The notes: generated by a model from the sequence alone, not told the origin. Numbered from the stretch's first letter, positions 4,130 through 8,630 are shown. The stretch is 27,259 bases of DNA from Candidatus Aenigmatarchaeota archaeon (GCA_023139785.1 JAGLMX010000001.1:1-27259), one strand, 5' to 3'. Translations and numbers: made by a program.

Positions 4130-5483
4130 GAAGTACACAGCGTAATATTATGTTTTTCATATATTTTGAAGACGCAAACGCTTTCATGCCATATACGGCA
4201 ATAAAAAGAACAAAGTAATTTATTGGAATAAAATATCTTGGTTCAATATGATGGAAAACATTTGACAACATAATAAGGATTAAGACAATGAATAAGTAAT
4301 GTTCTTTCTCTTTGTTCCTTAATATGAAATATGTTCCTACAATGGCGAACAGATAGACTAAAACTTGTTCTGTCCACATTAGCAACAATACAATTCCGTT
4401 TTTGTCAACAATAAGACTTTGCAGTAACGTAGGTATTTGCGAGAAATTTGTATTGTATATGAGTTTCTCCTTGAAATCTCCTGATAATCCGGCGCCTAAA
4501 TTCATGAATATAAATTGTGGTACTCGTTTTATCATGATACCAGCATACCATATTGGCTCGTTTTTTATAACTTCAATAGCTTTGTTTATCCTTAGTTTGT
4601 CGCGAGAAAATGGGTCTGGGTATAGAAACGATGTAGCATTTTCGCTTTTTATAAGATTTTCATCGCCCCAGGGTGCTCCAAATCGCTTTTCTGTATCGAA
4701 TTCGCCAATACCCTCCCACATAGAAATTCCTATTTTTGGTGCGGAAATTACAAGATGATTGTGGTGGTAATCGTTTCTTATCATCCAAGGAAAAACAATG
4801 AGGAGCAAAGCGACAATAAAGACGAGAGCAATTTTAACGGGCTTTTTAGGTCGTGCAACAAAGAGATATATCAGAAATGCGGGCGCAAACATTATGCCGA
4901 AATCCCTTGTCAGGCTTGCAATCCCTAAAACAATACCGGACCAAAAATATCTTTTTTCAAGAAAAAGCATTGCCGATGCAAGTAAAAGAGGTCCAAACAG
5001 GACTTCTGAGAGGATTGTTGTGGACAGGCGAATGTTTGGCAAATAAAATATTGTAATTAGGGCAAGAAGTAGCGAATATTTTTCGCCAAGACGTTTTTTT
5101 GAAAAGAAATAAAGTGCAGGAGGCACCAATGAAAGCAGAAGTATCTGCATTATTTTAAAGACAATTAGGCTCTTCCCAAAAAGCAAAAAAGAGGCATACA
5201 CAAAAAGAGAATATATGGGCGGTTGCCATACTGCTGGCTGATAAAAATATTCATTTCCATCGAAAACCTGTTCAACAAATCCGTGTCCTTCAAGCAGATT
5301 CTCTGCAACAGAAATGAAATCACTGCTTATGCCTTCAAAATAAGGCATGCCTGAGAAATACGAAAAGAAGAGCAAGTTTATTGCAAGTGTTGCGAAGTAT
5401 ATTTTTACAACTTTTTTATTTAAGGAGTGTGTTTTTACATCAAGTTCCTTTTTAGATGAACGATTTTTGCGTTTTTGTTTAAT
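4092..5483 (-). CDS. GT-C fold multi-TM glycosyltransferase (ArnT/PMT-like); start uncertain (ATT 5483 inferred, TTG 5375 in ORF track)
   Basis: D..SVAENLLEGHGF loop after TM1, QPPIYSLF, LSEVLFG, GIASLTRD, PWMIRN, EPRYFIP and many hydrophobic segments. The frame is open upstream of 5375 to a TGA at 5490-5492. Confidence 0.8.
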   Translation of the reverse strand: MKQKRKNRSSKKELDVKTHSLNKKVVKIYFATLAINLLFFSYFSGMPYFEGISSDFISVAENLLEGHGFVEQVFDGNEYFYQPAVWQPPIYSLFVYASFLLFGKSLIVFKIMQILLLSLVPPALYFFSKKRLGEKYSLLLALITIFYLPNIRLSTTILSEVLFGPLLLASAMLFLEKRYFWSGIVLGIASLTRDFGIMFAPAFLIYLFVARPKKPVKIALVFIVALLLIVFPWMIRNDYHHNHLVISAPKIGISMWEGIGEFDTEKRFGAPWGDENLIKSENATSFLYPDPFSRDKLRINKAIEVIKNEPIWYAGIMIKRVPQFIFMNLGAGLSGDFKEKLIYNTNFSQIPTLLQSLIVDKNGIVLLLMWTEQVLVYLFAIVGTYFILRNKEKEHYLFIVLILIMLSNVFHHIEPRYFIPINYFVLFIAVYGMKAFASSKYMKNIILRCVLHGKKIRKKISRN

Positions 5484-7017
5484 GATATATCACCTTTTCT
5501 GTAATGTCAATATAATTATAGGGGTATTGTAGATCTTCAAAAATATAGCTTCGGTCATTTAATAAACTATAATTTGCATTAAAATATTCGTTAAAAATAA
5601 TCCGAAAAGAATTAACAGGAGATAGTTCATTATAGAATATCTTTTTGTCATTTTGTGGTATGTAGATTGCGTTGAAGATTCTCATATGAACTTGAAGGGA
5701 TTCGTCACTTAATGTTGTCCAGTCTATGCCTGCACCACCATGTTCTCCAAATTCCGGTGTAAATGGTCCCTCATCGGATTGCAATATTATTATTACGGGG
5801 CGCTCGGATTTTGATATTAGAGCATCAGTAAGAAAACGCAGTTTTTTTTCGAGAAAAATTACTTGCTCAATATACAGTTCTTTTTCGTTTTGTCCTGTGT
5901 TTTCAAGTAAATCTCCTTCTCTTGTAAACGAATATGGGTCGTGCGTGACAAGAAAATGGGCAAAAACAAACTTGGGTTCCTCTATTTCTGGCATTTCCTC
6001 TAGTTGGTCAAATTTATACAGTTCGCGGGTCCATTGTTCTTTTTTGAATAAAATTTTGTTAATGAATGGATATATTGCAGTGGTTTTCAATAATTCTTTA
6101 TGGAATTCATTCATTTCGAGAGCATAATAGTTGATATTTATATCGGCATATTCGTTTTTTCTCGTAGGCTCCCACCAAGTGCCAAAATGTATGAATGTGT
6201 AATTTTTTTCTTTTAAGAGCCCCCATACTTTATGGTCTTTCATCATGTTGTTTGCAATATTGGTGTCTTTGGAGTTTTCTCCTAACATTTCTGATAGATA
6301 TAAGAGGTGTTTCATATTAAGGGATGATGCCAGAGAAAGATGGGTTTTTGGATAATTTGCCAAACTTTCATTTGCTATATAGAACCCTTTGTCTGTGAGG
6401 TACTCTATAAATTTGCTGTTGTCATAACCATAATATTCTTTCAGGGTGCTTGAAGGCGCGTATCGGTCAAGAATGATGTAGTATATGTCTGGAGCCACTT
6501 CTGGGACTTCAAGAGACTCATTGAAGAGAACTTTGTTTTCATTGGATTTTTCACCAAAAGCCATAAAATGGTTGATTTCGTATGCAGCAATATTAAATAA
6601 AGAAATAGATACCAGTGCAAGAGCAATATAGTTTAATGCGGGAGTGATGTTTTTTGCGCGCTTAACAGTCAATTTTAAAAGAGGGCATGATACAAGGACG
6701 AAAAACAGGGCGTATGCAATCATGCCGTCTTGGTTTCTTGCAATGGTGAACCCGTTAAGCTCAAATCTGGAAATAAGACTGTAGAAATGAACATATGAAA
6801 AAAATATCAGGATACAAAATGAAAGAAGTATTGCTTTTTTTTCACTGTTTTTAAAAACAAAGCCAAAAAGATGCCCTGCTGTCCGATACAGCAAAAGTAT
6901 GATGACAACGGGTAGGATGAGGGCATCAATGGATATTTGCTCGATGTTGTTGGCTGCCAGAAAGAAAAGCGGAAATAAGGCAAACAATACGGTGTGCATG
7001 GTTTTTGTTTTAATCAT
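5479..7017 (-). CDS. Membrane-anchored alkaline-phosphatase/sulfatase-superfamily transferase (LtaS/EptA-like architecture; NoeB-like)
   Basis: About 5 N-terminal TM segments, then PDIYYIILD184, NYPKT225HLSLAS, FAHFLVTHDPY and IILQSDEG. No CxPxR formylglycine motif. Confidence 0.78.
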   Translation of the reverse strand: MIKTKTMHTVLFALFPLFFLAANNIEQISIDALILPVVIILLLYRTAGHLFGFVFKNSEKKAILLSFCILIFFSYVHFYSLISRFELNGFTIARNQDGMIAYALFFVLVSCPLLKLTVKRAKNITPALNYIALALVSISLFNIAAYEINHFMAFGEKSNENKVLFNESLEVPEVAPDIYYIILDRYAPSSTLKEYYGYDNSKFIEYLTDKGFYIANESLANYPKTHLSLASSLNMKHLLYLSEMLGENSKDTNIANNMMKDHKVWGLLKEKNYTFIHFGTWWEPTRKNEYADININYYALEMNEFHKELLKTTAIYPFINKILFKKEQWTRELYKFDQLEEMPEIEEPKFVFAHFLVTHDPYSFTREGDLLENTGQNEKELYIEQVIFLEKKLRFLTDALISKSERPVIIILQSDEGPFTPEFGEHGGAGIDWTTLSDESLQVHMRIFNAIYIPQNDKKIFYNELSPVNSFRIIFNEYFNANYSLLNDRSYIFEDLQYPYNYIDITEKVIYH

Positions 7018-8413: not shown

Positions 8414-8630
8414 ATCGCTTCCTCATAGAGAACCTGTTTTTTAAAGAAACTTTGAGCTTACTCCAGTATGTTTTGGCTACAAGGAACGCCCCGAACAAAG
8501 ACGCAAGAAGCAATTGGAATATGTAGCTGCCAATACCCGGATCCAAATACGCATGAGCTGTTTTTGGAAAAACAATACAACAGCCGACAAGAAATGCCAC
8601 GAAGGTATTGAGACGCAATGAATATTTCAT
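8397..8630 (-). CDS. Small membrane protein (77 aa): signal peptide, AHA|YLDPG motif, one TM helix, basic tail
   Basis: ATG 8630 gives MKYSLRLNTFVAFLVGCCIVFPKTAHA-YLDPGIGS-YIFQLLLASLFGAFLVA-basic tail. Overlaps the next start (8413), which has an upstream GAGGA SD-like site. Confidence 0.75.
   Translation of the reverse strand: MKYSLRLNTFVAFLVGCCIVFPKTAHAYLDPGIGSYIFQLLLASLFGAFLVAKTYWSKLKVSLKNRFSMRKRYEKNK

Follow-up and report, generated by a model that had tools for sequence, protein, structure and literature searches.

What do three tightly packed genes within a surface-glycan locus of an uncultured archaeon encode, and which process could they serve together? The genes lie on the minus strand of a 27,259-nt stretch of DNA from a Candidatus Aenigmatarchaeota archaeon (GCA_023139785.1, JAGLMX010000001.1:1-27259), whose full length is called the window throughout, and encode a micro-protein of 77 amino acids (aa), a 461-aa protein with a kinase-like and a methyltransferase domain and a 512-aa membrane transferase. 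An initial annotation had described them as a glycan-decoration module, in which a methylated phospho-group is built in the cytoplasm and installed outside, and which would be an uncharacterised envelope-modification pathway shared by bacteria and archaea. With high confidence we identify the trio as an archaeal copy of the NoeA/NoeB cassette, and as an acquired copy. The cassette is already known, as it was published on bioinformatic grounds in 2022 (PMC9758233), and the trio is a further archaeal member of it. As host-range genes, noeA and noeB were defined by genetics as early as 1995. Bacterial genomes that carry the cassette number in the thousands and are joined by some archaeal ones (1771 clusters at 50% identity, E ≤ 1e-30). 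To assign its reaction would probably mean to describe a further type of phospho/methyl envelope decoration and another micro-protein acting as an obligatory enzyme partner. The present analysis contributes an archaeal, glycan-locus-embedded example with a D-E variant of the metal site, a RIO-kinase profile match, genome-level evidence for a dependence of NoeB on NoeA, and a micro-protein that was present in 73 of 73 loci in two forms with the same predicted mature N-terminus. Since the host is an uncultured small-genome archaeon, the open question of the cassette becomes no easier to test.

The NoeA-like enzyme and the NoeB-like transferase

The identification of the trio starts from the 461-aa protein (7028-8413, minus strand), which is predicted to be cytoplasmic. 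In a tblastn search of plasmids it matched the annotated noeA of Sinorhizobium pSymA with 33% identity over 98% of the query (E 1e-50). Its AlphaFold2 (AF2) model (predicted local distance difference test score, pLDDT, 95.5) gave S. meliloti NoeA (Q52892) as the top Foldseek match, with E 1.2e-44, TM-scores of 0.95/0.92 and a root-mean-square deviation of 1.8 Å over 468 columns. The protein is a full-length two-domain orthologue of S. meliloti NoeA, and both searches bear out the resemblance that had initially been noted. A word-index search returned more than 8000 matches at about 62-65% identity, whose named sources were many bacterial phyla and one archaeal lineage. At 50% identity the homologues formed 5931 clusters at E ≤ 1e-3, the 1771 quoted above being those at E ≤ 1e-30. 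Pfam recognised a sub-threshold methyltransferase domain alone, no NCBIfam model matched any of the three trio proteins, and sequence searches of the PDB with the single 461-aa and 512-aa proteins as queries gave no matches.

The N-terminal domain (about residues 1-250; 7664-8413, minus strand) is protein-kinase-like. When 76 diverse family members were aligned, no variation was observed at S12, D15, R29, D119, N124 and D136, R29 occupying the position where the beta3 Lys is expected. A profile of residues 1-255 was aligned by hhalign with a profile built from 16 archaeal RIO kinases (probability 75%, E 2.4e-5), whereby L-K-D-A-S-x-Y-N ... I-D of the family was paired with the RIO catalytic loop H-x-D-L-S-x-x-N and the Mg-binding Asp. 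This profile match independently supports the kinase-like assignment published in PMC9758233, from which the fold of the domain is taken. The kinase-like domain of the initial annotation is corroborated by the same catalytic loop, conserved in the 76 members and aligned with RIO kinases. A protein-atlas search with residues 1-250 retrieved the same family only.

The C-terminal domain (about residues 255-461; 7031-7651, minus strand) exhibits the Rossmann-type fold, the Gly-rich motif I and the acidic residue after strand 2 of class I S-adenosylmethionine (SAM) methyltransferases. Motif I reads DLGANTG (293-299) and is followed by the acidic D316/D318 and by D343-x-x-N346-P347-S-P; the SAM motifs are intact across the 76-member alignment. 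Among PDB sequences, the family profile matched the phosphate-methylating domain of WbdD best (E 0.005), and the structural neighbours include the phosphate/phosphonate O-methyltransferases MePCE, BCDIN3D and DhpI.

The NoeB-like membrane transferase (512 aa; 5479-7017, minus strand) has 3449 homologues, the closest of which share about 40-45% identity, falling to 25%. Its AF2 model (pLDDT 90.5) comprises an N-terminal membrane domain (about residues 1-160; 6538-7017, minus strand) with five transmembrane helices (8-23, 30-54, 58-83, 95-114 and 118-161), a long bridging helix and an alkaline-phosphatase-fold catalytic domain, predicted to be extracytoplasmic (about residues 175-512; 5482-6495, minus strand). 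Foldseek ranked full-length EptA (5FGN) first, followed by EptC, PbgA/YejM and MCR-1, and the structural alignments to PbgA and MCR-1 covered the whole length. D184, T225 (in N-Y-P-K-T), H354, H359, D415 and E416 are invariant or near-invariant in the NoeB-like alignment, and judging from the order of the motifs T225 would be equivalent to EptA Thr280. The claim of an EptA/LtaS-like enzyme with about five transmembrane helices and a Thr nucleophile is in agreement with the Foldseek ranking, the modelled helices and the invariant T225. The metal pair, situated in Q-S-D-E-G-P, is D-E instead of D-H; E416 is present in about 90% of the clade, whereas the other NoeB-like neighbours mostly carry D-H (20 vs 3). 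For Pfam Sulfatase (PF00884) a score of 21.7 bits was obtained, below the cut-off of 25. A formylglycine sulfatase was considered and rejected, as the protein has no C/S-x-P-x-R motif and carries Thr at the nucleophile position; because the Thr is present and the formylglycine motif is not, the protein is assigned to the phosphotransferase type. The likeness to Sinorhizobium NoeB, also noted initially, applies to the motifs and to the genomic position, which are the same, but the sequence match to NoeB itself is weak (pairwise E 0.002).

The micro-protein and the layout of the trio

The first gene of the trio (8397-8630, minus strand) was assigned from its open reading frame (ORF) and its motif. 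The 77-aa micro-protein begins with a Sec-type signal-like segment ending in A-H-A, directly followed by YLDPGIGS (residues 28-35; codons at 8526-8549, minus strand). The remainder consists of a single hydrophobic helix, which contains an invariant Gln, a Trp at the membrane interface and an amphipathic tail rich in Lys and Arg. With this protein a word-index search matched the query itself only. Relatives were sought by motif in 80 genome loci, which had been fetched with a NoeA-like profile. All 73 loci with enough upstream sequence (73/73) contained an ORF with Y-[LI]-D-P-G-x-G-S or a close variant upstream of the NoeA-like gene, often overlapping its start; in 2/73 the NoeB-like gene was placed between the two. 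YLDPGTGS (18 cases) and YIDPGTGS (10 cases) were counted besides others, and YVDWGSAS, YLDAGSGS, YLDPATGS, YLDASTGS and YIDPGIAS were rare variants. The micro-ORF was also identified in Singulisphaera, in one Omnitrophota genome and in one Aenigmarchaeota contig.

Two forms of the micro-protein could be distinguished. One carries a Sec-type signal segment with a small-x-small (A-x-A-type) site right before the Tyr (45/52), while in the other the protein starts at most 10 residues ahead of the motif (0-10). In either case the predicted mature N-terminus is at the motif, and according to the positive-inside rule the mature protein would span the membrane once with its N-terminus outside and its C-terminus inside. 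A search for fusions revealed neither enzyme joined to the micro-protein, and long N-terminal extensions look like over-called ORFs. An association of the signal-peptide form with the presence of NoeB was also considered (29/14 vs 9/11); it was weak and phylogenetically confounded and was dropped.

The ORF listing of the window agrees with the layout initially described: three co-oriented minus-strand ORFs (8397-8630, 7028-8413 and 5479-7017), with a 17-nt overlap of the micro-protein gene and the 461-aa gene (8397-8413) and a 10-nt gap between the latter and the 512-aa gene (7018-7027). The small ORF can be read from an ATG (8397-8630, 77 aa) or from a TTG (8397-8669, 90 aa). A TATA-like A/T-rich element, ttataaatataaa (8652-8664, minus strand), was read directly about 28 nt 5' of the ATG at 8630. 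Since it lies 3' of the alternative TTG at 8669, the 77-aa reading is favoured. The genome is archaeal and TATA-binding protein (TBP) genes are present. The TATA-like box claimed initially is indeed there (8664-8652) and suitably placed, but such octamers are no commoner in the window than expected by chance (113 found vs 130 expected). It is compatible with a promoter and is no evidence on its own. With respect to the trio as a separate unit, the caveat applies that it is part of a longer co-directional minus-strand block (3392-14014).

Linkage, autonomy and genomic setting

Do the three genes form a unit beyond this archaeon? Co-occurrence of the trio was one of the points on which the initial annotation had declared itself refutable, and by gene-neighbourhood comparison it holds in bacteria and archaea. 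Of 61 loci that included both flanks, 33 had an adjacent NoeB-like gene, as detected by hidden Markov model (HMM); where it was not adjacent, the partners included a distant sulfatase-type protein, a family 2 glycosyltransferase (GT2) and Wzy_C. Genomes without an adjacent NoeB-like gene nevertheless contained a strong copy elsewhere in 4/5 cases (E 1e-59 to 1e-113). For one of the genomes without an adjacent copy, 101 genomes of its bacterial class were inspected, counting full-length NoeA-like proteins: 4 carried both genes, 2 the NoeA-like gene only, 1 the NoeB-like gene only and 94 neither (Fisher one-sided p 1.8e-5, with related genomes not being independent). NoeB-like genes are therefore nearly confined to NoeA-positive genomes, the reverse dependence being looser. 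The counts indicate that the NoeB-like protein depends on the NoeA-like protein more than the reverse, which fits an order of action of NoeA first and NoeB second.

Four loci (L038, L041, L066 and L082) exhibit two or three tandem NoeB-like paralogues after a single micro-protein/NoeA-like pair, which suggests one inner-face enzyme serving several outer-face transferases. In three others (L078, L084 and L092) the pair is located between a short-chain dehydrogenase/reductase, a CMP-sugar synthetase/HAD fusion and NeuB upstream and a KpsC/KpsS-like (Capsule_synth) protein and GT2 downstream, a setting of the kind met with glycolipids of the nonulosonic-acid or Kdo type. Furthermore, a conserved protein of about 335 aa with two transmembrane helices and no Pfam family replaces the NoeB-like protein downstream of the pair in L046, L055, L059, L081, L087 and L088. 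These loci form one synteny group, by title mostly Anaerolineae or other Chloroflexota, and the upstream neighbours in those checked were housekeeping genes (DprA, nucleotidyltransferase, topoisomerase I).

A fourth conserved gene was not observed, no family occurring in more than 3 of 75 flanking ORFs. Elsewhere the flanking genes are miscellaneous, e.g. DprA, topoisomerase I, major facilitator superfamily (MFS) proteins and MscS. Most neighbours in the window (the GT-C-like and LamG proteins, DegT and others) did not recur beside the cassette in the 80 loci, and common gene types (epimerase, GT2, GT4, AsnB, two methyltransferases) recurred in at most 6/80. Miscellaneous flanks and non-recurring neighbours together indicate that the three-gene unit is a mobile module and that its glycan-locus setting is particular to this genome. 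"Glycan-decoration module" is consequently not retained as a general label, as the cassette is elsewhere found mostly among unrelated housekeeping genes. Neither large gene was found in 40 sampled relatives of the archaeon (same genus to same order), and the 461-aa protein is 63-64% identical to bacterial copies. Both observations point to lateral acquisition of the trio by the archaeon.

As to the window itself, Pfam annotation confirms that the trio is embedded in a glycan locus, as the initial annotation had proposed. GT2 and GT4 glycosyltransferases, a GT-C-like protein, DegT, a hexapeptide acetyltransferase, a GFO oxidoreductase, a UDP-sugar dehydrogenase, a HisH/HisF/PseA-like amidotransfer trio and several methyltransferases were recognised. 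Upstream the trio is adjoined by a co-oriented gene (8671-11067, minus strand), which stood beside the cassette in 0/80 related loci. Its 798-aa product is predicted to be secreted and combines a LamG/ConA-like domain with a bacterial TSP3-type Ca repeat. Directly downstream of the NoeB-like gene a GT-C/PMT_2-like membrane glycosyltransferase is encoded (4092-5490, minus strand), whose listed TTG start at 5375 may be too far in, as the frame is open almost to the NoeB-like stop. The region 15128-22487 contains a gene set typical of UDP-2,3-diacetamido-2,3-dideoxy-mannuronic-acid-type sugars with an acetamidino group, namely a DegT aminotransferase, the hexapeptide acetyltransferase, the GFO oxidoreductase, the UDP-sugar dehydrogenase, a nucleotidyltransferase and the HisH-like/HisF-like/PseA-like amidotransfer trio, which is of the kind known as AglXYZ/WbuXYZ. 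Finally, a 593-aa protein (23690-25471, minus strand) has a type-11 methyltransferase domain at its N-terminus and a large C-terminal region without a Pfam match.

Proposed mechanism, rival explanations and known systems

What, then, would the cassette do? Our best explanation as a whole, to which we give somewhat less than an even chance, combines the acquired NoeA/NoeB cassette with a process in two compartments, by which a membrane-bound molecule of the envelope would be modified in sequential steps. The micro-protein would insert with its N-terminus out and its C-terminus in, so that the motif would come to lie at the outer membrane surface, either by signal cleavage or by means of a very short N-tail. 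Its basic amphipathic tail would hold the soluble NoeA-like enzyme at the inner face, as BcsF recruits BcsE. With ATP (D119/N124/D136) and SAM this enzyme would modify a membrane-linked substrate that many hosts share; most simply, it would first phosphorylate the substrate and then methylate the phosphate, as WbdD does. At the outer face the EptA-like enzyme, with Thr225 as the nucleophile, would handle a molecule that depends on the NoeA product, either as phospho-donor or as acceptor, and would put a phospho-substituent on a surface polymer. In the archaeon the glycan or an S-layer glycoprotein of the surrounding locus would be the likely target. Gene order, homology, folds, conserved catalytic residues and co-occurrence are observed, whereas the topology, the order in which the enzymes act, their substrates, the methyl-phosphate and the tethering are inferred. 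Across phyla the NoeA-like protein is far more conserved (about 62-65% identity) than the NoeB-like protein (about 40-45%, down to 25%), which, together with the lack of fixed neighbours, fits a universal inner-face substrate and host-specific acceptors. The data would also accommodate the chemistry proposed initially, in which a methyl-phosphate or a methylated phospho-alcohol is made in the cytoplasm and then attached outside.

Several observations weigh against this explanation. No Pfam kinase model matched any of the 76 NoeA-like members even at E up to 10, the whole-model Foldseek and VIA-align lists contained methyltransferases only and no kinases, and Arg for the beta3 Lys without an identified ion-pair Glu has also been described (PMC9758233); the atypical Lys position, the missing Pfam match and the methyltransferase-only lists leave the catalytic competence of the kinase-like domain unproven. 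The structural neighbours of the methyltransferase domain are near-equal in score and include the N-methyltransferase NodS and phosphoethanolamine N-methyltransferases, so that phosphate O-methylation is not singled out and the methyl acceptor cannot be read off the neighbours. A pure tether would not need its most conserved part to face outward, which leaves the motif unexplained, as is the D-E of the clade in place of the usual D-H metal pair. In the class sample a detectable NoeB-like gene was missing in 2/6 NoeA-positive genomes. No biochemical data on any cassette member were found in the literature searched, and the original noeA/noeB work, as represented in the literature cited in PMC9758233, concerned host range and named no product.

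How do other explanations compare? Since the acceptor is not fixed by the neighbours, the methyltransferase could instead N-methylate an amine (phosphoethanolamine or a phosphatidylethanolamine-type head group), with the kinase-like domain making or binding a phospho-alcohol and the EptA-like enzyme moving mono-, di- or trimethyl-phosphoethanolamine or phosphocholine from a lipid to the surface. We consider this amino-alcohol route unlikely. Phosphoethanolamine N-methyltransferases are among the sequence and structure neighbours (structure-list ranks 37 and 24), NodS heads the structural neighbours, the solved structures closest to the third protein are those of phosphoethanolamine transferases, and the conserved N-P-S-P after strand 4 presumably recalls the (D/N)PP(Y/F) motif of amino-methyltransferases; on the other hand, by sequence the family profile matches WbdD best and not an N-methyltransferase, and the NoeA-like protein is about 63% identical across domains whose phospholipids differ. 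A comparably low probability is assigned to two unlinked decorations, according to which the NoeA-like protein would be a WbdD-type cytoplasmic cap for a lipid-linked glycan and the EptA-like enzyme would independently add phosphoglycerol or phosphoethanolamine from bulk phospholipid, the genes adjoining since both act on one polymer. The WbdD-like domain content, the adjacency of NoeB-like genes in only about half of the loci and the loci with a KpsC/KpsS-like transferase, NeuB and CMP-sugar synthetase in place of NoeB would agree with this. Yet the window contains no Wzm/Wzt ABC transporter, the AF2 model no WbdD-like coiled-coil ruler, the cassette usually lies away from glycan genes, and the near-confinement of the NoeB-like type to NoeA-positive genomes would be unexpected for an independent phosphoethanolamine or phosphoglycerol transferase.

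The outward motif raises the further question of whether the enzymes act on the micro-protein, be it as their substrate or as a covalent shuttle. They would load and unload a phospho-group on the Tyr or Ser exposed at its N-terminus, comparable to the DltX Tyr carrying D-alanine or to pilin and FlgG modified by EptA-family enzymes. It accompanies the NoeA-like gene in every checkable locus, its most conserved segment is the outward-facing Y-x-D-P-G-x-G-S, to which the predicted cleavage site is directly adjacent, a micro-protein shuttle whose extracellular Tyr is invariant has been published with DltX (PMC12148441), and a cassette carrying its own substrate along would explain both its autonomy and its high cross-domain conservation. 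We nevertheless regard this as improbable, more so than the two preceding possibilities: the kinase-like enzyme has no signal peptide and is hence cytoplasmic while the motif is predicted outward, no DltB-like tunnel-forming partner and no micro-protein/enzyme fusions were found, the cytoplasmic tail lacks a universally conserved Ser, Thr or Tyr, and the signal-peptide type correlates weakly with NoeB presence. Just as little weight is given to a pseudokinase, i.e. an N-terminal domain which only binds substrate or nucleotide, so that the protein would be a methyltransferase acting on an existing phosphate or other group. The Arg for the canonical Lys, the failure to identify an ion-pair Glu or a clear Gly-rich loop and the missing Pfam kinase match speak in its favour, but no exchange of the residues equivalent to the catalytic Asp, the Asn or the Mg-binding Asp occurs among the 76 diverse members, these residues align with active RIO kinases, and such residue conservation is unusual in pseudokinases.

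A more specific and rather doubtful possibility is a self-contained donor cycle for a so far undescribed surface modification: from a universal lipid alcohol or lipid phosphate the tethered enzyme would make a lipid methyl-phosphate, the lipid would flip to the outer leaflet, and one or more NoeB-like Thr enzymes would transfer the methyl-phosphoryl group and regenerate the lipid. Polyprenol, polyprenyl-P or a diacylglycerol-type lipid would be the candidates, and host-specific surface polymers the acceptors. If true, the cycle would account for the autonomy of the cassette, its easy transfer between bacteria and archaea and the dependence of the NoeB-like on the NoeA-like gene, and likewise for the extreme conservation of the NoeA-like protein as compared to the divergence and tandem duplication of the NoeB-like one.

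The closest known counterpart is the nod-box n5 operon on pSymA of Sinorhizobium meliloti/medicae, nodL-(71/82-aa ORF)-noeA-noeB, which has the same three-part order as the trio, the gene after noeA being of the membrane alkaline-phosphatase type. The S. medicae micro-ORF encodes A-Y-L-D-P-G-T-G-S and, similar to the archaeal trio, overlaps noeA, here by 23 nt. In contrast to the archaeal 512-aa protein with its D-E, Sinorhizobium NoeB carries D-H. The rhizobial operon has nodL in front and is linked to host range, whereas the archaeal copy lies inside a glycan locus and no nodL was recognised in the window by Pfam annotation; moreover, the approximately 63% identity of the archaeal NoeA-like protein is to free-living bacterial copies, not to rhizobial ones. 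At the noeB position of S. medicae ml29 pSymA (L001, 6378-8038) two overlapping ORFs of 121 aa and 454 aa were observed and the plasmid table lists no protein; the noeB of this strain may carry a frameshift or be a pseudogene.

For the cassette family as a whole, Krysinska et al. 2022 reported the fusion of a kinase-like domain with a SAM-methyltransferase in 94% of about 2000 homologues, the neighbourhood Lani_1193-Lani_1194-Lani_1195 in Legionella anisa, two conserved neighbours of the fusion in 65% and 38% of 816 neighbourhoods, a third protein modelled on YejM/EptA, 12 archaeal species and the homology to NoeA/NoeB (PMC9758233). With fusion, neighbours and archaeal presence already described there, the module is not new, contrary to what "uncharacterised" in the initial annotation implied. 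In that work the proteins were discussed as candidate effectors and no role was given to the small neighbour. Sought here by motif and not by gene calls, the micro-protein was present in all 73 checkable loci, and the co-occurrence of the NoeB-like gene is shown at the genome level even if it is not adjacent.

WbdD of E. coli O9a (PDB 4AZS, PMC3482155) likewise combines a kinase-like and a class I methyltransferase domain in one polypeptide at the inner face, and its methyltransferase domain is both the best PDB sequence match (E 0.005) and a structural neighbour of the NoeA-like family. It differs by the reverse domain order and by a coiled-coil ruler and a C-terminal membrane helix, which the NoeA-like protein lacks, as well as by the Wzm/Wzt transporter, which is not encoded near the NoeA-like gene; membrane attachment of the NoeA-like protein would instead come from a separate micro-protein. 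A WbdD-type chain terminator was rejected on architecture (kinase-like domain followed by methyltransferase, no coiled coil) and context, the similarity being marginal. The NoeB-like protein shares with EptA/EptC/MCR-1, LtaS/LtaP and PbgA (YejM) the five-helix membrane domain, the outward alkaline-phosphatase fold and the conserved Thr after the N-terminal acidic metal ligand. Identity to EptA-type enzymes is about 10%, the second metal pair is D-E and not D-H, and formylglycine sulfatases score structurally almost as well against the NoeB-like protein as EptA-type enzymes do.

For the micro-protein two further systems are instructive. DltX of the D-alanylation pathway (PMC12148441) is also a small protein of the membrane, whose helix bears a short conserved motif with an invariant Tyr at its extracellular end, but its C-terminal FxYxxF motif, the acyl group that it carries and the required MBOAT tunnel protein DltB have no counterpart in the trio. 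The bcsEFG genes of E. coli cellulose secretion (PMC11470070) comprise, like the trio, a cytosolic protein, a single-pass micro-protein and an alkaline-phosphatase-fold transferase with five transmembrane helices; the amphipathic cytosolic tail of BcsF recruits BcsE to the membrane beside the phosphoethanolamine transferase BcsG (PMC11470070). The two gene sets have no sequence relationship, BcsE is a cyclic di-GMP sensor and not part of an enzyme pair, and BcsF has no conserved outward motif. We use bcsEFG as a working analogy for the tether role only, in which the tail of the archaeal micro-protein would act on the NoeA-like enzyme as that of BcsF does on BcsE.

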